From Rhodospirillaceae bacterium (GTDB lineage Bacteria > Pseudomonadota > Gammaproteobacteria > Steroidobacterales > Rariloculaceae), in contig JAHEKF010000006.1 of assembly GCA_024638465.1 (NCBI GenBank), forward strand, positions 10,777-74,776: a stretch of DNA of 64,000 nucleotides. The letters are read 5' to 3'. Every line of letters begins with the position of its first letter. The first letter of the stretch is position 1. A program made the translations under genes and the position numbers. Under the pieces are notes generated by a model. That model worked only from the letters and a program-made list of their open reading frames with translations. It was not told the DNA's origin and searched no databases. Below, one piece after another: positions 34,001 through 63,908 of this stretch.

Positions 34001-34537
34001 CTCCTGCACGGTGGTCGGATTCAGTACCGGCATCATCGCATCGATGAACGCGAATTCGCTCTGGTGCGCGATCGTCGACGACTTGCAATTGTGATCGTCG
34101 CCGGCCGCAACAAGGACGCCACCGTAACGCGAAGTACCGGCGGAGTTACCGTGTTTTAGCGCGTCGCTCGCGCGATCCACGCCAGGACCTTTCCCGTACC
34201 AGAGGCTGAATACGCCGTCGTAGCGTGTTTCCGGAAAAAGCGTCGCTTGCTGGCTGCCCCAAATTGCGGTCGCGGCCAGCTCCTCATTGACGCCGGGCTG
34301 AAAGTGAATCCCGGCCTTCTCGATCGCTTTGCCTGCCCGCCAGATCTCGCGATCGAGACCGCCGAGCGGCGAGCCACGGTAGCCCGACACGAAGCCGGCC
34401 GTGCGCAGCCCGGCGCGCTCGTCCCGGCGCCGCTGAATCAATAGCGTTCGGACGAGCGCCTGCAGACCGGTGAGGAAAACGGCGTGCTTATCGAGCTGAT
34501 AGCACTCGTCGAGTCGGTTAATTTGCCTCAGCGCCAC
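31094..34537 (-). CDS. indolepyruvate/2-oxoacid:ferredoxin oxidoreductase family protein (fused alpha-beta, 1147 aa)
   Basis: The N-terminus FLTGLQALVRTLLIQRRRDERAGLRTAGFVSGYRGSPLGG is typical of the fused Ior family. A Cys cluster CEGCGDCNQVSNC and a C-terminal IorB-like half are also present. Confidence 0.88.
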   Translation of the reverse strand: MALRQINRLDECYQLDKHAVFLTGLQALVRTLLIQRRRDERAGLRTAGFVSGYRGSPLGGLDREIWRAGKAIEKAGIHFQPGVNEELAATAIWGSQQATLFPETRYDGVFSLWYGKGPGVDRASDALKHGNSAGTSRYGGVLVAAGDDHNCKSSTIAHQSEFAFIDAMMPVLNPTTVQELIEFGLLGYGLSRFSGCWVGMKSIPETADASQTIDFDHDSFALVEPSFEMPPDGPGIRWPDPPLDQETRLHGLRLDAVAAFARANNVDRTIIDGPQPRFGIVTSGKAHSDTMQALEDLGLSPGRASEVGIRLYKVGMSWPLEPAGARAFADGLEEILVIEEKRSLIESQFKELLFDTAGSARPTIVGKRDERGERLLPSTGELNTGVVAAALGKRLARFFPSSSIDSRLAYLTRKDEAIAQVSGNAVRKPHFCSGCPHNTSTRVPDGSRAIAGIGCHFMVAWMGRNTETYTQMGGEGASWIGHAPFTDTGHVFQNIGDGTYAHSGSLAIRAAVASGVNMTYKVLHNDAVAMTGGQPVEGNFSAGQVARQLVAEGVKPVVVVTDDPERMKNDSQLPAEVAVHHRSELDRVQLRLREQPGVSALIYVQTCAAELRRKRKRGLIETPSRRVVINELVCEGCGDCNQVSNCLSVVPVETEFGRKRTINQSACNRDYSCLDGFCPSFVTLRDAVPKAPAALSLDKLPDLPEPPMPDLSKPYNVLVAGVGGTGVVTTSGLIGLAAHLEGKAVMELDQTGLAQKFGAVLSHLRVADSSDELHGARIPVGQVDLLLGGDLLVAAGKDTLIRLSTDRTSVLVNSHEEMPPDFIHERDLEFPGQALLLALRDASRDDGFHAVDASRLAYALTGDALSANVFLLGAALQRGLLPVSVAALDRALELFGTNVERNKLALNWGRYSVVDTAETERLSNGANPQERVAGSLKETIERRAEYLTQYQDGDYANRYRDAVASIQEVEKKILPESSALAEAVARSYFKLLAYKDEYEVARLYTETEFLDKLRDEYEGEPKLEFHFSPPWISGMDPNTGRPRKRAFGAWSIVLLRGLARMRFLRGSRLDPFSYTADRKLERRLLAEYEAILTAIAERLDERYFAVALELASLPEEIRGFGPVKAKAAAETAQQREVLLEKWPELVR

Positions 34538-49840: not shown

Positions 49841-50536
49841 ATGCCAGAAACTCAGCACATCCAACCGAGCTTAGAATCCTGCCTCGTTGTTTTTTTCAAG
49901 GCACCGGATCGCGCCAAGCGGCGGCTGGCAAACGAAATCGGCGACCTTGCGACACGCGCCGCGACGCACCTTTGGGACTGCATCGTGGAAGACGTGGACA
50001 GCTGGCGCGGCTCGGTTTGCTACGCGCCGGCGGAACTCAGCGATGCCGCCTGGCTGTCACGACAGCTGAATACGCCCCATGCGGCAGTTCTTCAGCACGG
50101 CCGCAATCTCGGCGAAAGAATCAACCATGTCGACCGGGTACTTCGCCACGGTGGCGAACGCAAGCTGATCTTCATCGGCACTGACTGCCCGGCGATGCAG
50201 CCGGAATATCTCGAGCGCGCCGATGCCTTGCTCGAAGACTTCGACGTGGTGCTGGGTCCTGCGGCGGACGGTGGCGTCGTCCTGATGGGAGCGCGCGCCG
50301 CGTGGCCGCCGCTAGCGGATCTGCCATGGAGTACCAACGCGCTGCACGAGGAGCTGAATCGTGCCTGCATGGCTCAGGGGAAGTCGGTCGTCGACCTCGA
50401 GCAACGCGCGGATGTCGACACGGTCGCCGAGTTACTCGCGGCGCGCAGAGATCTGGAAGACGACCGACGGCCTGCGCGGCGAGCGCTGTACAACTGGCTC
50501 AAGGAGCCGAATCCCGTCTGGACCGGACACTCCTGA
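49841..50536 (+). CDS. DUF2064/TIGR04282-type nucleotidyl/glycosyl-transferase-like protein ('rSAM/selenodomain-associated transferase 1')
   Basis: Contains CLVVFFKAPDRAKRRL...IFIGTDCPAM...VLGPAADGGVVLMG, the CofC/MobA-like fold pattern of DUF2064. The family assignment is from memory. Confidence 0.7.
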   Translation: MPETQHIQPSLESCLVVFFKAPDRAKRRLANEIGDLATRAATHLWDCIVEDVDSWRGSVCYAPAELSDAAWLSRQLNTPHAAVLQHGRNLGERINHVDRVLRHGGERKLIFIGTDCPAMQPEYLERADALLEDFDVVLGPAADGGVVLMGARAAWPPLADLPWSTNALHEELNRACMAQGKSVVDLEQRADVDTVAELLAARRDLEDDRRPARRALYNWLKEPNPVWTGHS

Positions 50537-51249
50537 TGCGAAATGCGAAACCGATTCTGCTCGCGATCATGGTGGTCGTCATGCTCACAGCCGTGGCATT
50601 GCTGCCTGTCGCGGATTGGCTCGCGATTGGCGTTACGTGGATCGAAGCGCATCGCACCCTCGCGTGGATCGCTTTTATAGCAACCTATATCGTGGCGACC
50701 GTGCTCGTCGTACCAGCCGCCATTCTCACTCTCGGTGCAGGGTTCGTGTTCGGGCTCCCACTCGGCGTTGTGCTCGTCTCCCTGGGTAGCGTACTGGGCG
50801 CTTCGGCGGCATTTCTCGTCGGCCGTTTTTTCGCCCGAGATTGGGTCGCCAGACATATAGAGGGATTGCCGCGCTTCCAGGCGCTGGACCGAGCCACGCA
50901 TCACGAGGGTTTCGTTATCGTTTTTCTCACGCGCCTTTCGCCCTTGTTTCCCTTCAATCTCATCAACTACGGCCTGGCGCTAACCAGCGTCAAGTTTCGG
51001 GACTATTTCTTCGCTTCCTGGATCGGCATGCTCCCGGTTACGATTCTGTACGTCTATATCGGCTCTCTGGCCAGTGAACTGGCGGAGCTGACCAGTGGCG
51101 AGGTGGGCGGCGGCATGGCAAGGACGGTATTTTTCATCGTCGGACTCCTCGCGACCGTCGTCCTGACCGTCGTGATTACGCGCAAGGCGACCAGGACGCT
51201 GGCCGAGCATCTAGCGGCGGAATCCGCGGCAGAGGACTCCCCGCCTTGA
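50536..51249 (+). CDS. TVP38/TMEM64 (DedA-related) family membrane protein
   Basis: The start ATG 50536 overlaps the preceding TGA (TGATG). It has 5-6 TM helices and the characteristic LTRLSPLFPFNLINYGLALT. The track ORF from 50302 is over-extended. Confidence 0.85.
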   Translation: MRNAKPILLAIMVVVMLTAVALLPVADWLAIGVTWIEAHRTLAWIAFIATYIVATVLVVPAAILTLGAGFVFGLPLGVVLVSLGSVLGASAAFLVGRFFARDWVARHIEGLPRFQALDRATHHEGFVIVFLTRLSPLFPFNLINYGLALTSVKFRDYFFASWIGMLPVTILYVYIGSLASELAELTSGEVGGGMARTVFFIVGLLATVVLTVVITRKATRTLAEHLAAESAAEDSPP

Positions 51250-52697
51250 GTCTGCAATATCCGGGAAGTGAGTTCGACGATGTCTGGCGAAAGCTGACGT
51301 TTCCTGACGACCACGTCAATCCGGTACCGCAATCGCGCTACCACCTGGTCGTTATCGGCGCCGGATCGGCCGGGTTGATTTCCGCCATCGGCGCCGCAGG
51401 ACTCGGCGCGCGCGTCGCACTCGTCGAGCGGGACGCAATGGGCGGCGATTGTCTGAACATCGGCTGTGTGCCGTCCAAAGCACTTCTCGAATACACACGC
51501 AGGCACGAAACGCCTGTGAGCTTCGATGATGCCTATCGCTGGCTGCGGCGGGTCCGATCGGAAATTTCGGCGCACGACTCGGTCGAGCGCTACAGGACCG
51601 CCGGCGTCGATGTCTTTCTGGGAAACGCCCGACTCGAAGACGACGGTACGGTCGTCGTCGGAGACAGCCGCCTCAATGCGCGACGAATCGTCATTGCCAC
51701 CGGCGCTCGCGCATCCCTGCCGCCAATTCCGGGCCTGAGCGACACCGAGCCACTGACGAACGAGACACTGTTCGATCTCAAATCGCCGCCGTCGGCACTC
51801 GCCATACTGGGCGCCGGCGCGATCGGTTGCGAAATGGCACAGGCGTTCGCGCGACTCGGCGTCGACGTCCAGCTTTTCGAAATGGCAGAGCGTGTTTTAC
51901 CGCTCGAGGAGGAAGAAGCGAGCACGGCTGTGGAATCGGCACTGAAGCGCGCCGGTGTCACGCTGCATCTAAACGCTGCTGTCACTTCCGCGGCGCGTAA
52001 TGAGGCCGGCGTGACGCTACGGACAGACGACCTCCAGATAACGACCGACCAGGTTCTGGTGGCCGCGGGGCGTCGTGCAAATACCGAAGGTCTCGGGCTG
52101 GAGGCCGCCGGCGTCGCCATCGAAGACGGTCTGGTCAAGGTCGACGCGAAGATGCGTACGACCAACAACAAGATCTTCGCCGCGGGTGACATCTGCTCGA
52201 AGGCCCAGTTCACCCACAATGCGGATGCTCAAGCGAGGATCGTCGTACAGAACGCATTGTTCGCTGCCACTGCGAGCGCCGACAAGCTCATCATTCCTCA
52301 CTGCACCTACACCAAACCGGAAGTCGCGCACGTCGGTCGCAGCCGCCGGGATCTGGCTGCCGATAATACGGATTTCGACGTTTACCGCGTCAACCTCGGT
52401 GAGCTCGATCGTAGTCGTACGGCAGGAGATACCGATGGCTATGTCGAAGTACTGACGCGAAAAGGCCGCGACGGCATCCTCGGTGCGACGATCGTCGCGC
52501 ACGACGCCGGCGACCAGATAGCCGCTCTGTGTCTGGCGATGGCTCATGGCATCGGGCTCGCCGGTTTCGGCAAAGCGGTACTGCCCTATCCCACTCGCGC
52601 GGAGTACTTGCGCCGACTGGCCGACGCCTATAATCGGACACGCCTCACGGATCGCACGAAAGCGCTGATGTCCCACTGGTTTCGCTGGAGCGCATGA
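51246..52697 (+). CDS. pyridine nucleotide-disulfide oxidoreductase, class I (mercuric reductase/dihydrolipoamide dehydrogenase-like, no NmerA)
   Basis: Contains VVIGAGSAGL (FAD), the redox-active disulfide GGDCLNIGCVPSK, LAILGAGAIGCE (NAD(P)H) and a C-terminal dimerisation domain. TTGA overlap with the upstream gene. Confidence 0.85.
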   Translation: MSLQYPGSEFDDVWRKLTFPDDHVNPVPQSRYHLVVIGAGSAGLISAIGAAGLGARVALVERDAMGGDCLNIGCVPSKALLEYTRRHETPVSFDDAYRWLRRVRSEISAHDSVERYRTAGVDVFLGNARLEDDGTVVVGDSRLNARRIVIATGARASLPPIPGLSDTEPLTNETLFDLKSPPSALAILGAGAIGCEMAQAFARLGVDVQLFEMAERVLPLEEEEASTAVESALKRAGVTLHLNAAVTSAARNEAGVTLRTDDLQITTDQVLVAAGRRANTEGLGLEAAGVAIEDGLVKVDAKMRTTNNKIFAAGDICSKAQFTHNADAQARIVVQNALFAATASADKLIIPHCTYTKPEVAHVGRSRRDLAADNTDFDVYRVNLGELDRSRTAGDTDGYVEVLTRKGRDGILGATIVAHDAGDQIAALCLAMAHGIGLAGFGKAVLPYPTRAEYLRRLADAYNRTRLTDRTKALMSHWFRWSA

Positions 52698-53413
52698 TGC
52701 CCGCTCACGCCGTATCGATAATCGTTCCGGTGCTGGCCGATTCGGCCGCGCTAGCTGCGCTGGTAGCGCGAATTCGGAAGTGGCCCGAGCAGCCCGCCGA
52801 AATTCTGGTCGTCTCCGCCGGGCCGAACAGGGAACTGCAGGAACGCTGCAGTGCGCTTCGATGCGGCTTTCTGGAATCAACCCGCTGCCGCGGCGTTCAG
52901 CTCGATGCCGGAGCTCGGGCGGCGAGCGCGGATATTCTCTGGTTCATGCATGCCGATGCAGGACCGCATCGCGACAGTCTCGGTGCGATCGCTGCCGCAA
53001 TCGACGCAGGTGCGATCGGCGGGTTCTTCCGCTTCAGGCTCGGCGGGCGGGCGGCGTGGTGGAAAGCACTGCTCGATCGATTGACAGGTCTGCGGGTTCG
53101 GCTTGGCGGCATCCCGTATGGGGATCAGGGTCTGTTCGTCGCACGGGCAGCCTACGAAATCTCGGGCGGTTTCGCTCCGCAACCGCTCTTCGAGGAGGTA
53201 GCGCTCGTCAAATCGTTGCGTCGGCAGGGGCACTTTCGCGCGCTTTCACTGCCCATAGAGGTAGACGCACGACGCTGGGAGCGCGACGGCTGGTTGTCGC
53301 GAAGCCTGAGCAACCGGATGCTTGCGCTTCGATACAGTCTCGGCTCGTCCGCCGAGAACCTCGCCGAGCACTATGACAGGGTAGCAGTGACTGACAGGAA
53401 AGCGACATCGTGA
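52694..53413 (+). CDS. GT2-like glycosyltransferase, TIGR04283 type ('rSAM/selenodomain-associated transferase 2')
   Basis: Contains VSIIVPVLADS (GT-A N-terminus), ILWFMHADA and PYGDQGLFV. ATGA overlap with the upstream gene. The family assignment is from memory. Confidence 0.7.
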   Translation: MMPAHAVSIIVPVLADSAALAALVARIRKWPEQPAEILVVSAGPNRELQERCSALRCGFLESTRCRGVQLDAGARAASADILWFMHADAGPHRDSLGAIAAAIDAGAIGGFFRFRLGGRAAWWKALLDRLTGLRVRLGGIPYGDQGLFVARAAYEISGGFAPQPLFEEVALVKSLRRQGHFRALSLPIEVDARRWERDGWLSRSLSNRMLALRYSLGSSAENLAEHYDRVAVTDRKATS

Positions 53414-54315
53414 GCGCAGCAGATCCGTTGACCCACACACCGGACGCTGAACCGCGGGGCTATATCGATCCCGGCGCGCTGCGCGAACTTTGGTTCCATA
53501 CCGGGACGGCTTGTAACCTCGATTGCCCTTTCTGTCTCGAAGGATCGAAACCCGGGGACACTCGACTCGACAGGATCAGGCTAGACGACGCACGGCCGCT
53601 GATCGACGAGGCCGTCGAACTCGGCGTCGAACAATTCTCGTTTACAGGCGGTGAGCCATTCATCGTCAAAGACTTCGTCAACATTCTGCAATACGCGTCG
53701 GAGACAAAGCCCTGCCTTGTATTGACGAACGGCACGGACGTGGTCTTGAAACGCATGCGGCAGATCGAGACGCTGACAGATCAGCCTAATCCGATCGCAT
53801 TTCGGGTCAGCATCGATTTTCCGGATGAGTCACGCCATGAAGCCGCTCGCGGAGCGGGCAACTTCGCGAAATCCTGGCTGTGTCTCTCGGAGCTTCACGC
53901 GCGCGGATTCAAAGTCTCGATCGCGCGTCAGATCGGTTCGGACGAAGACGAGAAATCCGTAACGGCAGCCTACAAAGCGCTGTTCCGAACGTACGGCCTG
54001 CCCGAGGACACGACAATCGTGTCTTTTCCCGATTTTCTCACGCCCGGCTGTCATCCACAGGTGCCGCATATCACGGAACACTGCATGACGACTTACCATA
54101 CGGAGGAATCTCGCGCGGCGTTTATGTGCGCTTTCTCCAAGATGATTATCAAGAAGAGTGGCCGCATGCGCGTCTACGCATGCACGCTCGTTGACGACGA
54201 CGAGACCTATGACCTGGGCGGTACGCTGGCGGAGAGCCTCGGGAAACGCGTCATGATGCGCCACCACCGCTGCTACAGCTGCTTCGCGTTCGGCTCTTCC
54301 TGCAGCGAACTCTGA
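53410..54315 (+). CDS. radical SAM protein with C-terminal Cys-rich domain (ArsS/TIGR04167-like)
   Basis: Contains the CxxxCxxC motif TACNLDCPFC, FTGGEPF, and the C-terminal CMTTY...MCAFSKM...YACTL...HHRCYSCFAFGSSCSEL. GTGA overlap with the upstream gene. Confidence 0.75.
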   Translation: MSAADPLTHTPDAEPRGYIDPGALRELWFHTGTACNLDCPFCLEGSKPGDTRLDRIRLDDARPLIDEAVELGVEQFSFTGGEPFIVKDFVNILQYASETKPCLVLTNGTDVVLKRMRQIETLTDQPNPIAFRVSIDFPDESRHEAARGAGNFAKSWLCLSELHARGFKVSIARQIGSDEDEKSVTAAYKALFRTYGLPEDTTIVSFPDFLTPGCHPQVPHITEHCMTTYHTEESRAAFMCAFSKMIIKKSGRMRVYACTLVDDDETYDLGGTLAESLGKRVMMRHHRCYSCFAFGSSCSEL

Positions 54316-54332: not shown

Positions 54333-55322
54333 TCAGGCCGGGAAGAAATCGATCGGCTTGGTCGTCGTGATCGCTTCTACGTCCCTGGCTTCGAACTGGA
54401 ACAACAGGACGCGCTGCACGAGCTTCTGCTCGAGATCGGGATCGCCGAGCTCCGAGGATACGACCTCGCAAAAACTCACGGTGCCGCTTGGCTCAATCGT
54501 CAGGCGCAGCAACAGCTTTCCTACGAGCAGCGGATTCGAACGAAGCGCGCGGTTGTAGAGAGCGAAGATAGCGCCTTTGTTGCGATCGAACACGAGCTCG
54601 ATCTCCTCACGGCTACGCGAAGGCAGGTTACTTGACCCGGCCCGCGCGGTGTCACCGCCGACAGGTGCTAATCCCTCGAGCGGATTGTCGACCTGCGTGG
54701 TCGCGCGTGCGACCAGACCGCTCCCGCCCGTCGTTCGGCTGAACGAACTCGTATCGATGCCTCCGCTGGAGCTCTGCGCAGCCGATGTGATCAGTGAACG
54801 ATCGGTCGACGGCGCGTCGCTTTCAGTCGCTCCGACGACGTCGGTCTCGCCGAGACTTTCCAAAGCCTCGTTGTCACGCAGAGATGCGAGCTCTGCTGCA
54901 AACGGCAACAAGCCGGCAACGCTGGCCCGCTCGCGAGCGGCCTGCACGTTCTCGACCGGTTCCGCAGGTGCGATCGGCTCGAGCGGAACTTCCACGACTG
55001 GCTCGGGCTCGGGCACCGCTTCCGGTTCGACGAGCTGCTCGACCACCGGTTCCGGCTCCGGAATCGGTTCTTCCTCCACGACTACCGGCGGCGGGGGTGG
55101 CGGCGGCGCTTCACGCTCGAGCACCAGCCGTGCGAAGCGATTCGGTATCTCTTCGATTTCGGCCGGGTCAGGCTCGGGTAGCGGCACGACGCCCAGAATG
55201 ACGCTGAGCAACAGGAGCAAACCGGCGGCCCGCACGGCAATACGCCGAAACGCCTGATCCTGTTCCCCACCGGTAACCCAGGGCAGATCGTAGACGCGAT
55301 ACAAGGATAACGCTGTCGCCAT
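54333..55322 (-). CDS. TonB-like energy-transducer with AgmX/PglI-type C-terminal domain
   Basis: Has an N-terminal TM anchor and a Pro/Glu-rich spacer (EAPPPPPPPVVVEEEPIPEPEPVVEQLVEPEAVPEPEP). The C-terminus is ELVFDRNKGAIFALYNRALRSNPLLVGKLLLRLTIEPSGTV. Confidence 0.8.
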   Translation of the reverse strand: MATALSLYRVYDLPWVTGGEQDQAFRRIAVRAAGLLLLLSVILGVVPLPEPDPAEIEEIPNRFARLVLEREAPPPPPPPVVVEEEPIPEPEPVVEQLVEPEAVPEPEPVVEVPLEPIAPAEPVENVQAARERASVAGLLPFAAELASLRDNEALESLGETDVVGATESDAPSTDRSLITSAAQSSSGGIDTSSFSRTTGGSGLVARATTQVDNPLEGLAPVGGDTARAGSSNLPSRSREEIELVFDRNKGAIFALYNRALRSNPLLVGKLLLRLTIEPSGTVSFCEVVSSELGDPDLEQKLVQRVLLFQFEARDVEAITTTKPIDFFPA

Positions 55323-55326
55323 CGGT

Positions 55327-55860
55327 CTAGCCGCCGGAACCTGTCAGTGTCGCGATCTGCACGTCGGAGGACACCTGCATCACTGCCAGGGAAAGCTGCC
55401 CGTACTCCGCATCCGTACAGGTCGCCATGATGCGCTTCAATAACGAATACGGAATTTCCTTGTCGCCCATTATCGTAACTTCGCGACCGGCGACATCTTC
55501 GCGAGCATCCTGCCGCAGGGTTCGGTCCGTTTGACTCTGCAAAGCGGCGCGCAGCTCGGGAATGATCAGCTCTTCGCGCTGCATGATTTCGGGAACGTTC
55601 GCAACGCGCCGACCCTGAACGAGTAGATCGCTGTCAGTCACCGTCACGACAACGGTTTCGCGCGCGCGTTGCTCTGCAACAGATTCGGGCAGAGCCATGT
55701 CCTTCGCATTGGGTAACGTCTGCACCTCGCCGGAATTAACCAGCAGGAAGAACACGAGAATCGTAAAGATATCCATCAGGGATACGAGATTCAGCGAGAC
55801 ACCGCGCTTGTGCCTCGCATGGTGGCGCTCCATTCGCGCCGCTCGACTCGTGTACCGCAT
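55327..55860 (-). CDS. exbD: ExbD/TolR-family biopolymer transport protein (paralogue 2)
   Basis: Contains LNLVSLMDIFTILVFFLL (single TM, with Asp in the TM helix) and a periplasmic domain. 177 aa. Confidence 0.88.
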   Translation of the reverse strand: MRYTSRAARMERHHARHKRGVSLNLVSLMDIFTILVFFLLVNSGEVQTLPNAKDMALPESVAEQRARETVVVTVTDSDLLVQGRRVANVPEIMQREELIIPELRAALQSQTDRTLRQDAREDVAGREVTIMGDKEIPYSLLKRIMATCTDAEYGQLSLAVMQVSSDVQIATLTGSGG

Positions 55861-55872
55861 CGCGCCCGCCCC

Positions 55873-56376
55873 CTATTGCATCATCGGCGCGTCGCCGATT
55901 GCGATTTCCGGAAACAGCTCCAGCTTCGCGACGACCAGACGCTCTTCGTCGGCTCTCTCGAAAACGCGGACCTTGTCCATAACGTCGACCAGCGACTGGT
56001 AAGAAATTTCAGGCTCGAGCAGCAAGGTAGCGTCGAGCTTATCGGGAAACTGCCGTTTTACGGTCGCGAGGAAAGCACCAAGCTCGTCAAGATCATATCC
56101 CTGATCCGTGTTTTCGATTCGCGTCAACAGGCCGCCGTTGCGATCGCCAACATCGATCGAATCTTCGCGTACGATAATCTCGAGATTGAGTTCCGCTTCC
56201 GGCGGCTCGCTCGAATCTCCCTGAGATGTCGGCAGATTGAGCTCGAGAATCGCGACCTGCGAGAAGACCGCCGTAATCAGCAGGAACGGCACAAGAATCA
56301 CCATCAGATTCATGAACGCGGTGATATTGAGTTCCACAGCTTCGGTGCGGCGGGCTCGAGAGCGACGATGACGCAT
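55873..56376 (-). CDS. exbD: ExbD/TolR-family biopolymer transport protein (paralogue 1)
   Basis: Contains LNITAFMNLMVILVPFLL and a periplasmic domain. 167 aa. Confidence 0.88.
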   Translation of the reverse strand: MRHRRSRARRTEAVELNITAFMNLMVILVPFLLITAVFSQVAILELNLPTSQGDSSEPPEAELNLEIIVREDSIDVGDRNGGLLTRIENTDQGYDLDELGAFLATVKRQFPDKLDATLLLEPEISYQSLVDVMDKVRVFERADEERLVVAKLELFPEIAIGDAPMMQ

Positions 56377-56379
56377 CGG

Positions 56380-57039
56380 TTAACTCGCGGTTTCAGTCGA
56401 TTTGGCTTCCGAGTGTTCCGTCAATGCGTTCAGGAACTTCACCGATGCCATCTCGAGGCTGTCGACAATTTCAGTTGTCTTCGTCTGCAAAAGCGTGTGC
56501 ATGAGCAATAGTGGAATCGCGACCATGAGGCCGAAGGCCGTCGTGTTCATCGCAACCGAGATGCTGGCCGAGAGGAGATCGGCTTTCTCAGCGGGATTGG
56601 CATTCGATACCGCCGTGAACGCACGGATCAGGCCAATGATAGTGCCAAGCAACCCGAGCAGCGTTGCGATATTCGCGAACGTCGCGAGGTAATGCGTACG
56701 CTTTTCGAGTTGCGGCATGACTTCCATGAGACTCTCTTCCATCGCTTTTTCGACGTCTTCGCGACGCCGGGATGAACGCACACGTGAGAGGCCATAACTC
56801 AAGATCGTCGCTATCGCCGCTTTCGACTTCCCCGTGATCTGAACGGCGTTACTGAAGTTGCCGGCTTTAAGATGTGGCGTAATCTTTTTCCAGATCGACT
56901 TGTTTTTCACCGTAGCAGTGGTCAGATATAGCCATCGCTCGATCGCTATGGCCAACCCGAGAGCCAGCACGATCACGATCGGGTACATGAATACGCCGCC
57001 TTCCTGGAAAAACCCAACAATGGTGGAAAAGACTTCCAT
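56380..57039 (-). CDS. exbB: MotA/TolQ/ExbB proton-channel protein
   Basis: 219 aa with 3 TM helices and the conserved C-terminal block ATLLGLLGTIIGLIRAF...AMNTTAFGL. Confidence 0.9.
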   Translation of the reverse strand: MEVFSTIVGFFQEGGVFMYPIVIVLALGLAIAIERWLYLTTATVKNKSIWKKITPHLKAGNFSNAVQITGKSKAAIATILSYGLSRVRSSRRREDVEKAMEESLMEVMPQLEKRTHYLATFANIATLLGLLGTIIGLIRAFTAVSNANPAEKADLLSASISVAMNTTAFGLMVAIPLLLMHTLLQTKTTEIVDSLEMASVKFLNALTEHSEAKSTETAS

Positions 57040-57044
57040 GTCAC

Positions 57045-57443
57045 TTACTCCTTATCGCCTTCCAAAAAGAGGGCGTCGTAGTACTCGAGATGCCGTTCGA
57101 ATTCTTCCGGGTCGATGGGTGCAAGAACCTCATCGAGCAGTGTGTTCACCGGGCGACCGACCAGGTCGCCCAGGTCAGAACTCTTCCAGGGCACGATATA
57201 CAGAACCTTAGGCAGTTCCTGGCTTCCGGTAACGGAAGTAGTTCCCAAATTCAAAGTATCCATAACGCGGCGGGACGGCGCCGTGCTCGCGACTTCTGGC
57301 AAATTGCTGACGTCGACCGCGGGTTCGAGGTTCGCAACGTCAGGAAGCTCGGGCTTCTCGGAGGTCTCGGCGTCCTGTGCCCGCGCGGCGCCGAAAGTGC
57401 ATAACAAGCCCAGTGCGACCGCTGTCCGTAGAAAGATATTCAT
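57045..57443 (-). CDS. secreted hypothetical protein (132 aa) of the Exb/TPR operon
   Basis: Has a signal peptide (ALGLLCTFGAARAQ). Its start overlaps the upstream stop by 4 nt, and it ends 5 nt before exbB. Confidence 0.65.
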   Translation of the reverse strand: MNIFLRTAVALGLLCTFGAARAQDAETSEKPELPDVANLEPAVDVSNLPEVASTAPSRRVMDTLNLGTTSVTGSQELPKVLYIVPWKSSDLGDLVGRPVNTLLDEVLAPIDPEEFERHLEYYDALFLEGDKE

Positions 57444-58129
57444 CGCGAGAGCTCCTGAGCGACACGCTGTGGCTCGGCCGGTACGCCGAGGCGGCGCCTG
57501 AGATCCACGATCCAGCCAGCGACCGCCCGGTCGGGCTCCGTCAGCAGCGCCTGATAGCGCTCGTAGTTCGCGAGCGCGTCGGCCGGGCGACGCAGGTAGA
57601 CGTCAAGCAGGATGCCGAGATTCATGTAGGCGAATGCGTAATCCGGGTCCGCAGCGATCGCACGCTCATACGCCGCTTCCGCATCCGTGAATCGTCCTTG
57701 CGAGCGCCTGAGAATTCCGAGCTGATTGTTGGCGGCCGGGTGCTCCGGATCCAGACTGAGCGCGAGCTGCAGCGCTTCATCGGCGTCTTCGAATTTCTCG
57801 TTCTCGCGATACACGATCGCGAGATTGACGTACGGCCCCGCATAATCCCGGTACTCCAGGATAAGATGTTCGAGTTCGAGCTCGGCTTCGACGAGATCGC
57901 CCTGATCCATCGCCGAGAGCGCGCGTCCGTAAGATGTCAGCGCATCTTCGGGGATCGAGTCCTCGCCGGCACCCGGATCTACCGCGTCCGCGGAAATCGA
58001 ACCGCCCGAAGTTGCGCAGGCCTGCAGGATCAATACCGTCAGGGCCAGGCCTCCCGCTCTAATCAAGCGTGCGGTGCGTGGATCTGTCACTTCAGCGAAT
58101 CGCCGCCACATAGCGTTCTCCTGTCTCAT
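57440..58129 (-). CDS. TPR-repeat lipoprotein
   Basis: Has the lipobox LILQAC|A followed by 4-5 TPR units (...EAAYERAIAADPDYAFAYMNLG...). The start is either 58129 or 58111. Confidence 0.8.
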   Translation of the reverse strand: MRQENAMWRRFAEVTDPRTARLIRAGGLALTVLILQACATSGGSISADAVDPGAGEDSIPEDALTSYGRALSAMDQGDLVEAELELEHLILEYRDYAGPYVNLAIVYRENEKFEDADEALQLALSLDPEHPAANNQLGILRRSQGRFTDAEAAYERAIAADPDYAFAYMNLGILLDVYLRRPADALANYERYQALLTEPDRAVAGWIVDLRRRLGVPAEPQRVAQELSR

Positions 58130-60908
58130 GTTTTGCGTACCGCACGGGCATCAACTCAGCCAGCGCTACGAGACTCTTCTTTACCCAGTCGTCGTAGATG
58201 CCGTCTGCCGTGCGCGCGGCATTCAGTTCGTGTAATTCGATTGCCTGCTCTTCGAACGGGAATGCCTGTTCTTCGAGCAGGATGTCGTACTGTGAGATTT
58301 CAAGCGGAGTCAGCCCCTCCGGGCGCTCGGAATCGAACAGATCGCGACTTAGCGAGTGATAGAGGTTGGCAATCTCGAAGGTTGCCGCCGTCGTCACTTC
58401 GGCGACACCGTAATCGGCAGCGGCGCCATACGCTCCCAGAGCGCGCTCCATGCGTTCCCGCTTCAGAGAGAGGCTGTCCTCTAACGGCACAACCAGCCGC
58501 ACCGCATTGAATGCGTCGCGCGCGGGAACGCTAAGCTCGAGTGCAGCGTGTGCGGCGAGATATCGCGTCCGGTCGGTGCGGGCCGCTCCTGCACGGCCAT
58601 CTGCCTCGACGATGGCAGAGAGCCAGCGCATCCGCTCCGGGTAATCGTCCATCGCGATCGCGAGCTCCGCCAACGTGTGCTGCACTTCGACGGCTTCATT
58701 GATCGGTTCCGGATACTGCGTGACGTAACGCTCGTAGCTCGCCCGTGCCGCGGCGTTCTCGCCGGCGCCGGCGTAAAGTTCGGCAGCCTGCCAAAGCGCG
58801 TCCCGTCTGACTTCTGCCGGACCGTCAGCAGTTGCGATGCGGTCGAACTCGTTCGCGGCCAGCACGTTCGCGCCACTCGTCAAATAGGCAACGGCCAGCT
58901 TGGCCGTGACGTCGGATGCGAGCTCATGATCGGGATAGCGTTCGCGGAAATCGACGAGGACATCGATGGCCTGCGGCCAGTCTTCCAGCTGAATCAGACC
59001 CGCGGCCGCATCGTAACGCGCAGTCGCAACGATAGACGAGCCTGGCACGGTCCGGGCCACTCGAAGGAAATGCGCGACAGCCTCCGCATGCAGGCTGGCC
59101 GATCGTGCCAGTTCACCCTGCTTATAGATGGAAGACGCGAGCCGTTCACTGAGCTCGGTGTGTTCGGGCGCCGCCGCGGGCGTAAGCGCCAGCAGCTCGA
59201 GATAGCCGGTTTCGGCCTCGGCGAAGTTCGCCAAGTCGAACGAAGAGTGAGCAATTACGGTCCACGCGGTTCGTTTGAGTTCAGCATCGGCAGATGGGAA
59301 GAACTCGATTAATGCAGAACCGGTGGTCCTGGCGCGCTCAAAGTCGCCAAGCGCAAACAGCATCTCCGCGGAGTTGGTCAGGACCGGCGCTGCCTGCTCG
59401 TGGGCGGGAAACGTCGCTGCAAACCGTAGCCCGCTCTCGATTCGTTGCGCATGCCAGTCGACTCGCGCACTCCCATCGAGCGTCTCTTCATGGGTTGCGT
59501 AAGCGAGTAGTGCCGCGTAGGCTGCTTCGCCACTGCGTGCGTGAGACGCATAGCCGTACGCAGTGTGCTCATACTCGACAGCCGCATCGCGGTAGTTGCC
59601 ACTCTCGAACAGGACTTCTGCGAGCAGAAATCGCGTGTTGGCCGCGTCGGTACCATCCGGAAAAGTGTCCAGATAGGTTCGGTACCAGTACGCCGCCGTT
59701 TCATAGCTTTCGGCGGCTCCGGAAAGCTGTGCTTGCGCATGGCTATGCGACGCAAGCTCACCGAGATTCGCTTTAAGCGCAGCAACGACTTCCGGTTGCT
59801 GCTCGAACGAGTTGAGCGCCCAGTATCGGCTATCCGCGCCGTAGTCCTGAACAAAGCCACGCTTCGCATCGATAACGAGCTCCGCGAAACCACCCGTCTC
59901 GTAGGCTTTCATCGCCTCGATGTACATCAGCGGAGCCTTGGCGTGATACGGATCGTGTTCGACGAACGCCCGATAGGCGCGCGCTGTATCCTGATAACGT
60001 TCGCTCTCGAGATATAACTCGCCGAGCGATGAGTAGATAACGTAGGCGTAGAACGGCGTGCCCGTTCTCTCGAAAAACTCCGAAATCGTTTTCGGTCCGT
60101 CAAGGTAGGAAAAACTGATCGAAAGAACGCGAAGCGTATCTGTAAGAAGTTCCTGTTCAGCCCGCCCCATATCGGCATAGGCGGATCCGACGTCGGCATG
60201 CGGAGTTTCCACCTTGAACTTGATATCGAGCAGGCCGAAGAACGATGAAAAGCTCTCTTCGAATCGCTGTTGCTTAAACAACGACCAGCCATGTTTGTAT
60301 AGAGACTGCTCGAGAAACTGCGCGCCGCCGCTTTCGATCATCTGCCTGTACGCTCGTTCCGCTTCGTCGTATCGTTGCTGAACGAACAGCGATTCGCCGC
60401 GACGAAAATGAGCTTCCGCGAAATGCGGCGTCTGCGGAAATTCGCTAACGAGTCGATCGAGAGTTTTCAGCGCTTCCTCTGTTTGACCCGCGATCTCGTA
60501 GGCGCGTGCCAACTGATACAGCACGAGATCGTTCTTTTCATAGTCGGGGTAGCTGCTCAGCAAAGTTTGATAGAGGTGCACCGCGTCACCGAACTCGCCT
60601 CCCAGCGACTCGAGATTCTGCTGTAACTGCTCAACCTCTGCCGCCTCGAGTTGCAGGTCGGCGAGCCTGCGCATTCCTTCCGCCTGCAGCTCGGGATCGG
60701 TCGATGCGAGATCGAGGAACAGGCGGTAACTCTCGATTGCTTTCGACTGGCTGTCGTTGATGGCAGCTTCCGTATCTATCTCGATCGCCTGAGACTCGAG
60801 GTCGGCTATCGTAGGCGCATCCTCGGCGCGATCTTCGTCGCGACCGAAAGGCCATGGCAGCCACAAGCCCGCCATTGTCACCACCAACAGGGCAGTCGCA
60901 CCGTTCAT
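58092..60908 (-). CDS. large TPR-repeat protein (938 aa)
   Basis: Has an N-terminal TM/signal segment followed by TPR/Sel1-like helical repeats throughout (YQLARAYEIAGQTEEALKTLDRLVSEFP...). 4-nt overlap with the upstream gene. Confidence 0.85.
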   Translation of the reverse strand: MNGATALLVVTMAGLWLPWPFGRDEDRAEDAPTIADLESQAIEIDTEAAINDSQSKAIESYRLFLDLASTDPELQAEGMRRLADLQLEAAEVEQLQQNLESLGGEFGDAVHLYQTLLSSYPDYEKNDLVLYQLARAYEIAGQTEEALKTLDRLVSEFPQTPHFAEAHFRRGESLFVQQRYDEAERAYRQMIESGGAQFLEQSLYKHGWSLFKQQRFEESFSSFFGLLDIKFKVETPHADVGSAYADMGRAEQELLTDTLRVLSISFSYLDGPKTISEFFERTGTPFYAYVIYSSLGELYLESERYQDTARAYRAFVEHDPYHAKAPLMYIEAMKAYETGGFAELVIDAKRGFVQDYGADSRYWALNSFEQQPEVVAALKANLGELASHSHAQAQLSGAAESYETAAYWYRTYLDTFPDGTDAANTRFLLAEVLFESGNYRDAAVEYEHTAYGYASHARSGEAAYAALLAYATHEETLDGSARVDWHAQRIESGLRFAATFPAHEQAAPVLTNSAEMLFALGDFERARTTGSALIEFFPSADAELKRTAWTVIAHSSFDLANFAEAETGYLELLALTPAAAPEHTELSERLASSIYKQGELARSASLHAEAVAHFLRVARTVPGSSIVATARYDAAAGLIQLEDWPQAIDVLVDFRERYPDHELASDVTAKLAVAYLTSGANVLAANEFDRIATADGPAEVRRDALWQAAELYAGAGENAAARASYERYVTQYPEPINEAVEVQHTLAELAIAMDDYPERMRWLSAIVEADGRAGAARTDRTRYLAAHAALELSVPARDAFNAVRLVVPLEDSLSLKRERMERALGAYGAAADYGVAEVTTAATFEIANLYHSLSRDLFDSERPEGLTPLEISQYDILLEEQAFPFEEQAIELHELNAARTADGIYDDWVKKSLVALAELMPVRYAKHETGERYVAAIR

Positions 60909-62791
60909 TGGGCGGCTCCCGCAACCGCTTCCGCGGTCGTCGACTGCAACTGCGCCGTAGCGCGGTCGTAGATCGACGCAAGCGCGAAACGAGCCTGGAC
61001 GCGATAAGTGGTAAGTCGATCGTAGCGCGACTGAAGCTCTTCGACCGCAACGCTCTCGAGATGACTGGCCTGTCGCTCCATAGCGGCATCGACCTGCGCA
61101 GAGAGCGTTAACACACGCGGCGTGAGACTATCGATATCGGCCGTCAGAGTCGAAAATTCGCTCGGCCAATCGCCACGTGCGCTGTCGACTGTCGCGTAAC
61201 CTCGACGGACATCTTCGAGCTCAGTTTCGAGATCGCGCAGATCGCGCTGATGACGCCAAAGTCTCACCCGGTATTCGCGCTCCAGATTCCATCGCAGCAA
61301 GCCCTCGAGTACTCGTTGCTTGTGAGCGAGTTCCGCCGTACGCGGGTCTCCCGCCATCGACGTAAGCAGCGGGCGCATCGCGCGCAGACGTCGCCACTGA
61401 TCCTGCTCTTCCGGTGTCGCTAGCGCGACGAAATCCTGCTCGGCTTCTGCGGATATCAGCCTGGCGCGGTAACTTTCGACCTGCGAAGTCATTACTTCGA
61501 GGTCGACTCCGGCGAGGTGCCCGTCCACTCGCGGCAAGCGCTGATCGAAAGCGCGTTGTCGCGTATCGAGGATGTCGTCGAACGCACTGAGGCTGCGTAT
61601 CCAATGGTCGAGATTGGAACGCAGGAAAGTCAGGTCGCGGTAATTTTTCAGACCCTCCTGAAACCGATGCGAAGCTACCAGTTCGTACAGATAGCGAGTC
61701 TCGTCCGACTCTGGCAATTCGTCGAGTTGCCACTGCCAGCCGGACGCATCGACGCTGTCGGTATCGAGCAAACTCGCTATCAGCTCGCCTTCCTGGATCG
61801 AGTCAATCGACCCTTCGAGCCGGACAAGTTCGGCATCGAAAGCCGCGATCGCCTGAAGGTAGTGGTCCGCTGCCTGCTCATTCGCGCCGAGTTGGCTGAA
61901 CGCGTACGGAACGGCAAGCAACGCCTCTTGTGCCGCCGTGTCACGCAGGCTTCGGTCCCGTAACTCGAGCCAGGGAACGAGGGCAGCTTCGAAACTTTCG
62001 AGTTCGGCGTAAGACCAGCCGACACCGAGCAGTGCTCGCGTCGAGAACGGACCATTCAGTCGCACGCGCTGTAGCGATGCCCTGCCTTCCAGAGGTCGAT
62101 TCGCCTGCAGCCAGGCGTAGCCCAACGCGACATTCGCCTTGTCTCGAAGACCCTCCACGCCGGCTTCAACCGCATCGAGCTGGCCTACGTCATCGAGAAC
62201 CGCGATGCCGTCAGCGACCCGGTCCAGACGAACGAGAGCAACGCCGATATTGTATTTCGCATAGCCAACCCAGTCGGCACCGGGATCGGGCCATGCCTGC
62301 AGCACGGCGAGCGCTTCGTCGTAGCGCTCCTGGTCCATCAGGACCGTTGCGGAGAGGAGCTGCCGCTCCGGCTCGAGCTCGGAATCGAGCTCGTTCTGAA
62401 TTCGACCCAGGGCCGCAGCGGCCTCGTCGAGATAGCCGCGCTGGTACCAGATTTTCGCGAGGAAAAGCCATGCGCGATCATGCACTTCGGGTTCGACCGC
62501 GCCCTCGAGAAGGCGCTCGAAAATTGCCCCGGCAAGCTGGTGCTGCCCATACGAGAGATAGAGACCGCCGAGTAACAGCTCGCCCTCGGCTGCATGATGC
62601 TGCAGCTCACCGCGCTCTTGCGCCGCCAGTAGCCGCGTTAACGCTGAGAAATAGTCATCCTGATAAAAGTAGAATAGAACTTCGCCGTAAGCGAGATCTC
62701 GCACTCCGCTTTGCGGCGCATCTGCTGCGTTGACCCCGGTCGACGTCAGCAGCGCGGCGACGACCAGCGTCCTGTGCCATTTCCGAGTCAC
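60905..62791 (-). CDS. TPR + coiled-coil protein (628 aa)
   Basis: Has a signal peptide (VVAALLTSTGVNA), an N-terminal half of TPR-like repeats, and a C-terminal half that is heptad-rich. Confidence 0.8.
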   Translation of the reverse strand: MTRKWHRTLVVAALLTSTGVNAADAPQSGVRDLAYGEVLFYFYQDDYFSALTRLLAAQERGELQHHAAEGELLLGGLYLSYGQHQLAGAIFERLLEGAVEPEVHDRAWLFLAKIWYQRGYLDEAAAALGRIQNELDSELEPERQLLSATVLMDQERYDEALAVLQAWPDPGADWVGYAKYNIGVALVRLDRVADGIAVLDDVGQLDAVEAGVEGLRDKANVALGYAWLQANRPLEGRASLQRVRLNGPFSTRALLGVGWSYAELESFEAALVPWLELRDRSLRDTAAQEALLAVPYAFSQLGANEQAADHYLQAIAAFDAELVRLEGSIDSIQEGELIASLLDTDSVDASGWQWQLDELPESDETRYLYELVASHRFQEGLKNYRDLTFLRSNLDHWIRSLSAFDDILDTRQRAFDQRLPRVDGHLAGVDLEVMTSQVESYRARLISAEAEQDFVALATPEEQDQWRRLRAMRPLLTSMAGDPRTAELAHKQRVLEGLLRWNLEREYRVRLWRHQRDLRDLETELEDVRRGYATVDSARGDWPSEFSTLTADIDSLTPRVLTLSAQVDAAMERQASHLESVAVEELQSRYDRLTTYRVQARFALASIYDRATAQLQSTTAEAVAGAAQ

Positions 62792-62794
62792 GCC

Positions 62795-63367
62795 TTACTC
62801 CCACTCCGTGACGATGAATTCCGGTTGCAGCTTCTGCTCCCTGTCGGAAATGCTGAGTTCGACATACTTGGGTCCTATACCCTTATCGAAGACAAGGGTG
62901 GCACCGCGACGATAATCGCGCTCGTGAGGACCCCCTCCGGTGAATATCGCGACCAGCTCGTGCTCGCCGGCGCGGACGTTACCGAGAAATAGCTGGTGTA
63001 CGCCGCCGCGTATCAGTGCGTCAACTTCACGCGCGGTATACAGATAATTCGCAACATTCTCTCCATCCAGCGTGATCTGCACGGAATCCAGTGCAAAAAA
63101 CTCACCGACGTCCATCGATACGAAAACGGCCACCTGTGTATTGGCCGGGAACAGCAGTTCTTCTTCGAGCAGGAACAGGTCGCGATTAAGATCCATAACC
63201 GATGTCTTGAGGTCCTGGATGTCTTCATCGAGCGTTCGAAATTCCGCTTGCCCTGTCGCTTCAGCGATCTGAAATTCCGCCAATGGCGCCGCGGGCGCGT
63301 CCTGGGCAATGGCCGCCTCGCCGAACCACGCGAGTAATAGCAAGCCGCAGGTACTGATAAATCTCAT
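62795..63367 (-). CDS. secreted hypothetical protein (190 aa) of the Exb/TPR operon
   Basis: ATG 63365-63367 lies 6 nt after GGAG; the track's TTG at 63379 is less likely. Has a signal peptide (LLLLAWFGEAAIAQ). I recognised no family. Confidence 0.7.
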   Translation of the reverse strand: MRFISTCGLLLLAWFGEAAIAQDAPAAPLAEFQIAEATGQAEFRTLDEDIQDLKTSVMDLNRDLFLLEEELLFPANTQVAVFVSMDVGEFFALDSVQITLDGENVANYLYTAREVDALIRGGVHQLFLGNVRAGEHELVAIFTGGGPHERDYRRGATLVFDKGIGPKYVELSISDREQKLQPEFIVTEWE

Positions 63368-63395
63368 AACAGTCTCCAAACTTTCCCTTGGGCGA

Positions 63396-63908
63396 TTACT
63401 CTGCGAGCAATCGTTCCACGATCTCCGAATAGTGCTCGACGTTGCCGCGCTCGTAGCCCTGGATCACTTCGCGAATGACGCCTTCGCGATCGATCAGCAG
63501 TGCTACTGGGAGCGATTCGATGTCGTACATCCGGCTCACTTCGAGAGCGGAGTCGTCGAGCATGGGATAACCGAGTTCCAACGCGTCAACATCTTCACGG
63601 AGACTCGACGACAGACGATCCATACTGACGGAGAGCGGCTGCAGACCGGCATCGCCGTGGACGTCGTTGAGCTCGCGGATACCGGCCAGCTGCGCGCGGC
63701 ATTCGCCGCACCAGTTCGCCCAGAACGTCAATACGACAACGTCGCCGCGATACTCCGACAGACGCGTGTTCTCGCCTTCGAAGCTCTTCAGAACGAAATC
63801 GGGAGCACGCTCGCCACCGAGCTGTATCGCGGCACAAGCGACGCTGGTAAAAAACAACAGGAACAGTCCGCGAACCAGTCCCGAAGAGAAGTCATGCGTC
63901 AATCGCAA
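63396..63908 (-). CDS. TlpA/ResA-like periplasmic thiol:disulfide oxidoreductase (thioredoxin fold)
   Basis: Has a membrane anchor/signal and the CxxC active site VLTFWANWCGECRAQL. TTG start. Confidence 0.85.
   Translation of the reverse strand: MRLTHDFSSGLVRGLFLLFFTSVACAAIQLGGERAPDFVLKSFEGENTRLSEYRGDVVVLTFWANWCGECRAQLAGIRELNDVHGDAGLQPLSVSMDRLSSSLREDVDALELGYPMLDDSALEVSRMYDIESLPVALLIDREGVIREVIQGYERGNVEHYSEIVERLLAE

Follow-up and report, generated by a model that had tools for sequence, protein, structure and literature searches.

The 64,000-nucleotide (nt) stretch of contig JAHEKF010000006.1 analysed here (Rhodospirillaceae bacterium, assembly GCA_024638465.1; hereafter the window) carries, at positions 54333-63908, an operon of ten tightly packed open reading frames (ORFs), all on the minus strand and named g01-g10 in transcription order. 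We consider it likely that this locus encodes a standalone core complex of the Agl/Glt type, a trans-envelope, force-transducing machine driven by the proton motive force, and that it is a new member of a previously known, uncharacterised class. Luciano et al. (2011; PLoS Genet 7:e1002268, PMC3169522) described this core complex as gltC, gltD, gltE and gltG together with aglR, aglQ, aglS and one additional gene in a single operon, and found it in several Gammaproteobacteria, Methylibium, Geobacter and Fibrobacter that are not known to glide, where its function is unknown. The gliding genes of Myxococcus fall into two sets in that work, the other of which, Group A (gltA, gltB, gltF, gltH, gltI, gltJ and gltK), is restricted to gliders. 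The core alone was argued to be insufficient for motility, and in the published phylogeny such clusters group with Agl/Glt, not with Tol. Wartel et al. (2013) repeated the idea of the core complex and suggested a basal transport machine. An initial annotation of this DNA, made from the sequence alone, had pointed to a conserved Agl/Glt core in non-gliding proteobacteria, and this is accurate according to PMC3169522.

The ten genes of the operon, with product lengths in amino acids (aa) and tetratricopeptide repeats abbreviated as TPR, are as follows.

g01, 63396-63908, minus strand, 170 aa: TlpA/ResA-like periplasmic thioredoxin-fold redoxin
g02, 62795-63379, minus strand, 194 aa from a TTG start or 190 aa from the ATG at 63367: secreted protein, helix plus beta-sandwich
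g03, 60905-62791, minus strand, 628 aa: periplasmic TPR/coiled-coil protein in the GltC position, with a signal peptide
g04, 58092-60908, minus strand, 938 aa: periplasmic TPR scaffold in the GltD position
g05, 57440-58129, minus strand, 229 aa: TPR lipoprotein in the GltE position, lipobox LQAC
g06, 57045-57443, minus strand, 132 aa: secreted protein, the "additional gene" of the core complex
g07, 56380-57039, minus strand, 219 aa: TolQ/ExbB-like proton-channel subunit in the AglR position
g08, 55873-56376, minus strand, 167 aa: first ExbD/TolR-like subunit, AglQ position
g09, 55327-55860, minus strand, 177 aa: second ExbD/TolR-like subunit, AglS position
g10, 54333-55322, minus strand, 329 aa: GltG-type force transducer

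Eight of these genes match the core order gltC-gltD-gltE-extra gene-aglR-aglQ-aglS-gltG, with nearly equal product lengths. Read in the direction of the Marinobacter locus, the window gives 329/177/167/219/(132)/229/938/628 aa, and Table S3 of PMC3169522 lists 321/162/176/221/(unlisted 1599)/162/939 aa for Maqu_1595-1601 and 634/941/243/(unlisted 1227)/217/170 aa for Methylibium Mpe_A1224-1229. The entries for Hahella, Saccharophagus, Teredinibacter, Cellvibrio, Shewanella frigidimarina and Thioalkalivibrio in the same table are comparable to the window. The GltC, GltD and GltE positions and the extra gene agree in architecture and position, with 628/938/229/(132) aa in the window versus 584-660/933-964/162-263 aa and a numbering gap in Table S3. 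One TolQ-like gene (g07) is accompanied by two distinct, adjacent TolR-like genes (g08 and g09), and the GltG-type transducer g10 is encoded after the motor genes. No NCBIfam model for GltC, GltD or AglR/Q/S was matched by any of the operon proteins.

The ORF list and the Pfam/NCBIfam domain scan agree with the ten minus-strand genes and the gene order given in the initial annotation: the scan detected AhpC-TSA/Redoxin in g01, TPR families in g03, g04 and g05, MotA_ExbB in g07, and ExbD in g08 and g09. The junctions from g01 to g10 measure +16 (+28 with the 190-aa start of g02), +3, -4, -38, -4, +5, +3, +12 and +4 nt. The junction figures of the initial annotation were correct, although its length of 190 aa for the second protein clashes slightly with gaps that do not exceed 16 nt; this length results from the ATG at 63367, the start chosen on a public contig. 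Because g01-g06 and their orthologues have signal peptides or lipoboxes, these six proteins are assigned to the periplasm. Inside the ten-gene unit, no promoter-like or terminator-like site exceeded the shuffled expectation, and an Rfam search of the unit matched no RNA element.

Conservation of the operon was assessed in the closest 80 of at least 587 matching places in a collection with one genome per species. These loci belong to Woeseiaceae, Steroidobacteraceae, Acidiferrobacterales, Chromatiaceae-like bacteria and one Alcaligenaceae assembly, and all are metagenome-assembled except that of the cultured Peristeroidobacter agariperforans KA5-B. The ten genes are collinear and on one strand in all 61 loci long enough to hold them, and the remaining 19 of the 80 are without one or more matches, mostly at contig ends. 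The ten-gene arrangement is more than chance. The genes beside the unit are not conserved across clades, and a search for plasmid-borne copies of the cluster found none.

The transducer g10 consists of a short cytoplasmic tail with a conserved YRxY[ED]LPW motif, one transmembrane helix, a linker of ~190 aa that is first Pro/Glu-rich and then Ser/Gly-rich, and an AgmX/PglI C-terminal domain at residues 237-326. The NF033768 model for the AgmX/PglI C-terminal domain is passed with 55.6 bits (cut-off 40), while g10 stays under the cut-off of the TIGR01352 tonB_Cterm model (23.9 versus 27.1 bits) and fails Pfam TonB_C (13.2 bits, E = 0.13; threshold 24.6). The C-terminal sequence quoted in the initial annotation is present in g10, and the AgmX/PglI assignment that had been made by eye for this TonB-like C-terminus is thus confirmed with NF033768, the model suggested for this purpose. 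The NF033760 GltG model matches with E = 8.7e-10 in the C-terminal domain only, and the GltJ model is likewise matched there. With 329 aa, g10 is close to the 321-334 aa of most homologues in Table S3 (one has 535 aa). No His is present in the transmembrane helix of g10 or of its 60 orthologues, and the helix is without the SHLS/His motif of the TonB and TolA transducers as described in PMC12204202. The only Cys of the C-terminal domain, Cys285, is found in 61% of orthologues. A sequence search of the PDB with g10 returned no relative. In 32 of 58 related loci (e.g. L026), the start of a downstream gene of ~116 aa lies only a few bases from where the GltG-like gene ends; the window does not have this gene and shows a convergent one in its place.

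The putative motor is formed by g07, g08 and g09. In the Pfam scan, g07 scores 107 bits with MotA_ExbB, and g08 and g09 score 51.9 and 60.3 bits with ExbD. The equivalog models are missed widely: g07 reaches 67 bits with TolQ (cut-off 221) and 42.8 bits with ExbB (cut-off 206), and on the ExbD/TolR side the TolR equivalog gives 25 bits against 127 and the ExbD models 21-24 bits against 123-216. The closest PDB relatives of g07 are TolQ (36.6 bits) and then ExbB (31.5 bits). The two ExbD-like subunits differ so strongly that their alignment is confined to 35 transmembrane residues. Asp30 in the transmembrane helix of g09 is invariant (65 of 65 orthologues), while position 23 of g08 varies: it is Asn in the window, as in 26 of 67 orthologues, and the remaining 41 have Asp. 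The essential transmembrane Asp of the ExbD/TolR/MotB type would thus be kept only by g09 in this lineage, which would give a presumed heterodimeric axle with a single protonatable Asp. In its periplasmic part, g09 has Cys148, which is kept in 91% of orthologues.

The three TPR proteins fit the periplasmic part of the published complex. g03 contains TPR_19 and TPR_16 in its N-terminal half and is collinear in 78 loci; its length and position fit the MXAN_2541 (GltC) homologues of Table S3 (624-660 aa). g04 is built of many TPR_6/YbgF-like units, reaches 129.7 bits with the YbgF/CpoB model TIGR02795 when four repeats are summed, and fits the MXAN_4870 homologues of the table (933-964 aa). Its database homologues number over 3377, and the 120 best of them are 58-85% identical and mostly ~940 aa long, with a few GltE-fused proteins of ~1140 aa. 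g05 matches TPR families; it scores 41.7 bits with the GltE model NF033758 (cut-off 225), PilW scores higher, and its lipobox Cys is kept in 73% of orthologues.

Two natural fusions involve these proteins. In five clusters of ~1140 aa (e.g. P0061) and in locus L086, a GltE-like TPR domain is joined at the C-terminus of the GltD-like protein, with 57% identity between the fused part and mature g05. The 695-aa protein P0385 is a natural fusion of a g02-like and a GltC-like protein: its residues 67-227 match g02 (48% identity, E = 2e-36) and its residues 237-687 match g03 from the mature N-terminus (39% identity, E = 5e-55). These fusions support a physical association of g02 with g03 and of g04 with g05, and they provide sequence-based support for contacts that have so far been seen only in AlphaFold models.

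Neither of the small secreted proteins, g02 and g06, matched a Pfam or NCBIfam family even at E <= 10. g02 is the best conserved protein of the operon, with a median identity of 65% compared with 60% for the AglR-like g07 and 49% for g04, and its family comprises 1279 cluster representatives at 50% identity. The protein carries a signal peptide, and an AlphaFold2 (AF2) model from a 107-sequence alignment, with a pLDDT score (predicted local distance difference test) of 82.9, shows a long helix together with a beta-sandwich of eight strands; an earlier model from a shallow alignment was poor (pLDDT 62) and gave generic matches. The AF2 model had no match at E < 1e-3 among PDB folds, and the predicted fold can be described only as a long helix plus an immunoglobulin/transthyretin-like sandwich. 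Seven g02 homologues (P0122, P0133, P0193, P0199, P0396, P0407 and P0486) carry the NCBI name "AraC family transcriptional regulator". Since the protein has a signal peptide, no helix-turn-helix match and a predicted beta-sandwich, this label is probably a propagated misannotation. g02 appears to be the only truly undescribed protein of the operon and a new conserved subunit.

The N-terminal half of g06 is variable, and its C-terminal 70 aa are nearly invariant, with the motif T-x-[IV]-T-G-N-[QR]-E-L-P-K-V-[LM]-Y-I-V-P-W-K, found in 78 loci. This protein is the "additional gene" that had been noted for the core complex and occupies the numbering gaps in Table S3. The initial annotation had recognised neither small secreted protein as described, which holds for the 190-aa g02 and not for the 132-aa g06. 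g06 lies directly after the gltE-like gene, which is the position of gltF in Myxococcus. GltF is small, mostly disordered and said to resemble a TonB box (PMC9389320), and in the structural model of the Myxococcus machine it adds a strand to the C-terminal domain of GltG. From the shared gene position and this modelled strand addition, we propose by analogy that g06 may be the functional counterpart of GltF.

The redoxin g01 heads the operon. It scores 90 bits with AhpC-TSA and 65 bits with Redoxin, matches the ResA model with E = 1.8e-25 yet below its cut-off, and has a WCGEC motif and an N-terminal signal or anchor. It is encoded immediately upstream of g02 in 70 of 71 related loci, with an estimated median gap of ~51 nt (16-28 nt in the window), and is the least conserved of the ten proteins (median identity 41%). 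Identities of 47-52% connect g01 with the redoxins found in other related loci, among them the one at the head of DUF4266-DUF3570 in L038 and L084, and redoxins of related loci show the same range against the L084 protein. In these two loci, redoxin-DUF4266-DUF3570 lies directly upstream of the operon (L084, 8145-9984; L038, 5510-7431); L042 and L078 also have DUF4266 and DUF3570 upstream, and 29 loci have an adjacent ApbE. The full flavinylation module stands beside the operon in L038, L042, L078 and L084. The DUF3570 protein of L084 has an SGAS flavinylation motif and ends in SAWF, like outer-membrane barrels. Meheust et al. [quoted passage not shown] The leading thiol-disulfide oxidoreductase, taken in the initial annotation for an unrecognised accessory part, is thus homologous to the redoxin that heads DUF4266-DUF3570(-ApbE) modules beside the operon in some relatives. 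In the window the redoxin stands alone: tblastn with the L084 proteins found no ApbE, DUF3570 or DUF4266 within the 64 kb. One distant cluster, L082, has no redoxin.

If signal peptides, the lipobox of g05 and the CxxC of g01 are set aside, g09 Cys148 and g10 Cys285 are the only cysteines of the ten proteins. In one monophyletic clade of Steroidobacteraceae (loci among L033-L073), the redoxin is kept and its CxxC is lost (WAGDS). This loss and that of Cys285 in g10 coincide perfectly over 19 loci, all in that one clade and hence a single event, and three other losses of Cys285 retain the redoxin CxxC. The co-variation was considered as evidence for an action of the redoxin on the C-terminal domain of g10 and is kept only as a hint, since it reflects a single evolutionary event.

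A functional coupling of the Agl/Glt core, via g02 and g06, to an extracytosolic redox module is unlikely in our view; such a module would consist of the TlpA-like redoxin and, in some lineages, of DUF4266 (with a CXC motif), the flavinylated and probably outer-membrane DUF3570, and ApbE. If the coupling were true, the motor would position, gate or mechanically serve a redox-active component of the outer membrane, or would be under thiol control through the cysteines of g09 and g10. Such a partnership of motor and redox module has not been described for any Tol-, Ton- or Agl-type system.

A working model of the machine can be drawn from these assignments. g07 would form the pentameric shell of a 5:2 motor, whose axle would be a heterodimer of the very divergent g08 and g09. 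The motor would act on g10, a minimal GltG, at its one transmembrane helix; in Myxococcus, an interaction between AglR and GltG was detected by a two-hybrid assay (PMC3169522). The proline-rich linker of g10 (~190 residues) would cross the periplasm, and its AgmX/PglI (TonB-C-like) domain would dock on the TPR scaffold. In this scaffold, the 938-aa GltD-like g04 would be a pillar with the GltE-like g05 at one end and the GltC-like g03 and its partner g02 at the other. g06 probably donates a TonB-box-like strand to the C-terminal domain of g10, as modelled for GltF in Myxococcus, and g01 may be a conserved periplasmic accessory that possibly acts on the single conserved cysteines of g09 and g10. 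The work output would be a pull or a rotation on a platform near the outer membrane, and the target, which may be an outer-membrane protein, a surface polymer or an adhesin, would be encoded elsewhere. Gene content and order, domains, conservation and the two natural fusions are shown by the data; stoichiometry, contacts, direction of force and cargo are inferred, and our confidence in the individual contacts is lower than that in the overall identity of the system.

Several points weigh against the assignment to the Agl/Glt core. The link to the M. xanthus founders rests on the published table, synteny and the GltG- and GltE-related NCBIfam matches. The match of g05 to the GltE model is weak (41.7 bits versus a cut-off of 225) and no better than its matches to other TPR models, and g10 is without the FHA domains of M. 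xanthus GltG. It is also without the SHLS/His motif that TonB and TolA use for binding to the motor, so that its coupling to the motor is an assumption. The ten-gene unit encodes no outer-membrane partner, and a literature search that included locus tags found no phenotype or biochemistry for gammaproteobacterial copies.

Other systems to which the genes could belong were considered. It seems very unlikely that the operon is a specialised TonB system, either TonB2/Ttp-like or an extra ExbB-ExbD-TonB set, that energises uptake via a receptor encoded elsewhere. Such a system would account for ExbB- and ExbD-family proteins followed by a Pro-rich one-helix protein with a TonB-like C-terminus, whose TIGR01352 score lies just below the cut-off; the window contains, at a distance of 34 kb, a gene for a TonB-dependent receptor (18265-20322), and the Fibrobacter homologue was interpreted in this way by the authors of the proteomics work. 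However, TonB_C is reached only with E = 0.13 while the AgmX/PglI model passes, the ExbB and ExbD equivalogs are missed widely with TolQ outscoring ExbB, and two divergent ExbD paralogues and three TPR proteins are not Ton features. The helix of g10 is without the conserved His/SHLS, and the flanks examined in related loci contain no linked receptor gene. A Vibrio-type TonB2/Ttp system comprises TtpC, which is a long MotA/TolQ/ExbB protein, together with a DUF3450 protein and a single ExbD. The sole MotA_ExbB protein here is 219 aa long and not TtpC-like, no protein matches DUF3450, and two ExbD genes are present. A second, divergent Tol-Pal-like system for outer-membrane tethering or constriction in division and for envelope stability, with the TPR proteins as expanded CpoB/YbgF-like factors, is also quite improbable. 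It would agree with TolQ as the nearest relative of g07, with the lipoprotein g05, with the TIGR02795 score of g04 (129.7 bits) and with the name "TolA-binding protein" given by JGI to many homologues, but that score derives from generic TPR_6 repeats, no tolB, pal or ybgC gene and no TolB or Pal domain is present in the unit, the scores remain far from the equivalog cut-offs (67 versus 221 bits for TolQ and 25 versus 127 for TolR), and the published phylogeny (PMC3169522) groups such clusters with Agl/Glt. The statement in the initial annotation that the machine is distinct from both Ton and Tol-Pal is thus supported by the wide miss of the equivalogs, by the lack of an above-threshold TonB_C and by the lack of tolB, pal and receptor genes in the unit.

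The locus could also encode a complete gliding apparatus like that of Myxococcus or Bdellovibrio, with whose Agl-Glt machine it has the core genes in common. We consider this extremely improbable, since the unit has no Group A gene (gltA, B, F, H, I, J or K), no outer-membrane barrel, no GltI/J-like protein and no FHA domain, and the core alone is argued in PMC3169522 to be insufficient for motility. A different doubt concerns only the first gene. The redoxin g01 may be a historical neighbour that stems from an adjacent ApbE/DUF3570/DUF4266 redox module and not a subunit of the machine. This is a serious possibility, though not the one we favour: the module has been described independently of motors (PMC8238504), a homologous redoxin heads DUF4266-DUF3570 in L084 and L038, ApbE stands beside the cluster in 29 loci, L082 does without a redoxin, and this protein is the least conserved of the ten. 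On the other hand, its gene immediately precedes g02 in 70 of 71 loci, in several orders and even where DUF4266 and DUF3570 are missing, and the gene has been kept after the loss of CxxC in one clade, which suggests a structural role. The loss of the single Cys of the g10 C-terminal domain in the same clade also argues for a subunit, weakly, as it is one evolutionary event.

Downstream, the operon is limited at 54333 by a convergent plus-strand radical-SAM gene that abuts the unit. Upstream, it is followed for only 92 nt past g01 to the end of the window; another ~230 nt are covered by a short public contig, whose 327 nt before g01 contain no called gene. The plus-strand run that faces the operon (49841-54315) encodes DUF2064, a VTT/DedA-type membrane protein, a pyridine-nucleotide disulphide oxidoreductase, GT2 and radical-SAM; its ORFs are tightly packed, overlapping or abutting, and do not accompany the operon in other genomes. 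Elsewhere in the window, on the minus strand and unlinked to the operon, are the TonB-dependent receptor (Plug plus barrel) at 18265-20322, an MMPL/RND-type transporter at 10961-13573 and a 1147-aa POR/DUF6537 oxidoreductase at 31094-34537.

In the relatives, the flanks fall into different sets, with ApbE, LemA and M48 in one and a Laminin_G_3-containing three-gene set with a propeller protein in another. The three-gene set (a ~400-aa protein, a Laminin_G_3 protein of 850 aa and a ~540-aa protein whose signal is twin-arginine-like) was seen in 34-35 of 87 loci and lies upstream of the redoxin or of g02 in Steroidobacteraceae and other lineages (L083, 2744-8229; L085, 4383-9770; L086, 2086-7513). 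An HZS_alpha/PD40 beta-propeller protein of 880-985 aa often occurs with it, and a few loci have two small OMP_b-brl genes upstream, of which one encodes an SH3 domain. These upstream genes of relatives (the three-gene set, the propeller and the OMP_b-brl genes) are candidates for the outer-membrane side and are absent from the window. Flanking genes as additional parts of the window unit were rejected, because the flanks are clade-dependent and none of them is in the window.

The role of the Agl/Glt core in non-gliders has been an open question since 2011, and the core is taken as the ancestor of the gliding and spore-coat machines of Myxococcus. In the branch studied here, the conserved unit comprises ten genes, not eight, and its best conserved protein is without a family name. 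New here are the ten-gene conservation, the unnamed conserved g02, the two Rosetta-stone fusions, the motor variant with a single Asp and the recurring link to a thiol/flavin module. The finding is a good example of an already known, functionally uncharacterised system, and this category is unchanged by it. The cultured carrier Peristeroidobacter agariperforans would make the system experimentally accessible.

Comparison with known systems places these features in context. The clusters of PMC8238504 resemble the upstream region of L038 and L084, where a g01-homologous thioredoxin-fold protein heads DUF4266-DUF3570, but most of them contain a PF13899 thioredoxin, whereas g01 belongs to the AhpC-TSA/Redoxin type.

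With Tol-Pal and Ton, the window has in common a motor of the MotA_ExbB/ExbD superfamily (5:2 in Tol and Ton), a proline-rich one-helix transducer and, in g04, CpoB-like TPR_6 repeats. Unlike these systems, it has two heterologous ExbD/TolR paralogues and an AgmX/PglI C-terminal domain, and no TolB, Pal, receptor gene or SHLS/His.

Polysaccharide degraders are found among the carriers of such clusters (Saccharophagus, Teredinibacter, Cellvibrio and Peristeroidobacter agariperforans), although Marinobacter, Thioalkalivibrio and Geobacter are not of this kind. The Fibrobacter succinogenes S85 locus Fisuc_1892-1897 (= FSU_2397-2403) encodes TPR, TPR, ExbB-like, two ExbD-like and TonB-like proteins; it belongs to a different phylum, adjoins an OmpA-family gene and is the only homologue with any functional data; no g02 or redoxin is known from it. 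In Fibrobacter proteomics, the homologues reached higher levels on cellulose, cellulose was the only substrate on which the TonB-like protein was detected, and the TPR homologues were reported in a cellulose-associated surface complex. Fisuc_1893, 1894, 1896 and 1897 are listed as core-complex homologues in PMC3169522. We take the cellulose data and the polysaccharide-degrading carriers together as a functional lead and draw no conclusion from them.

The Agl-Glt machine of M. xanthus consists of the AglRQS motor, the GltG/J transducers, a periplasmic complex of GltD/E/F/C and an outer-membrane module of GltA/B/H/K and CglB, and has a sporulation paralogue, Agl-Nfs. It has in common with the window one TolQ-like and two TolR-like subunits, an AgmX/PglI transducer, a giant TPR pillar, a TPR lipoprotein and a GltC-like connector, and the GltD-GltE contact predicted by AlphaFold in Myxococcus is mirrored here by the natural fusions of g04- and g05-type proteins. 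In contrast to M. xanthus, the window unit has no outer-membrane barrels, adhesin, GltI/J or cytoplasmic platform, and g10 is half the size of GltG and free of FHA domains. The M. xanthus genes lie in three clusters, whereas those of the window form one operon, and g06 has no reported homologue in Myxococcus, as stated in PMC3169522; for g02 and g01, too, no Myxococcus homologue is reported.

The closest counterpart is the core complex of Luciano et al. itself, which has the same eight genes in the same order, with near-equal lengths, as a standalone operon in bacteria not known to glide. The carriers found here differ (Woeseiaceae, Steroidobacteraceae, Acidiferrobacterales and relatives), and the unit of the window and of no fewer than 61 related loci comprises ten genes, including g02 and the TlpA-like redoxin g01, neither of which is part of the published description.

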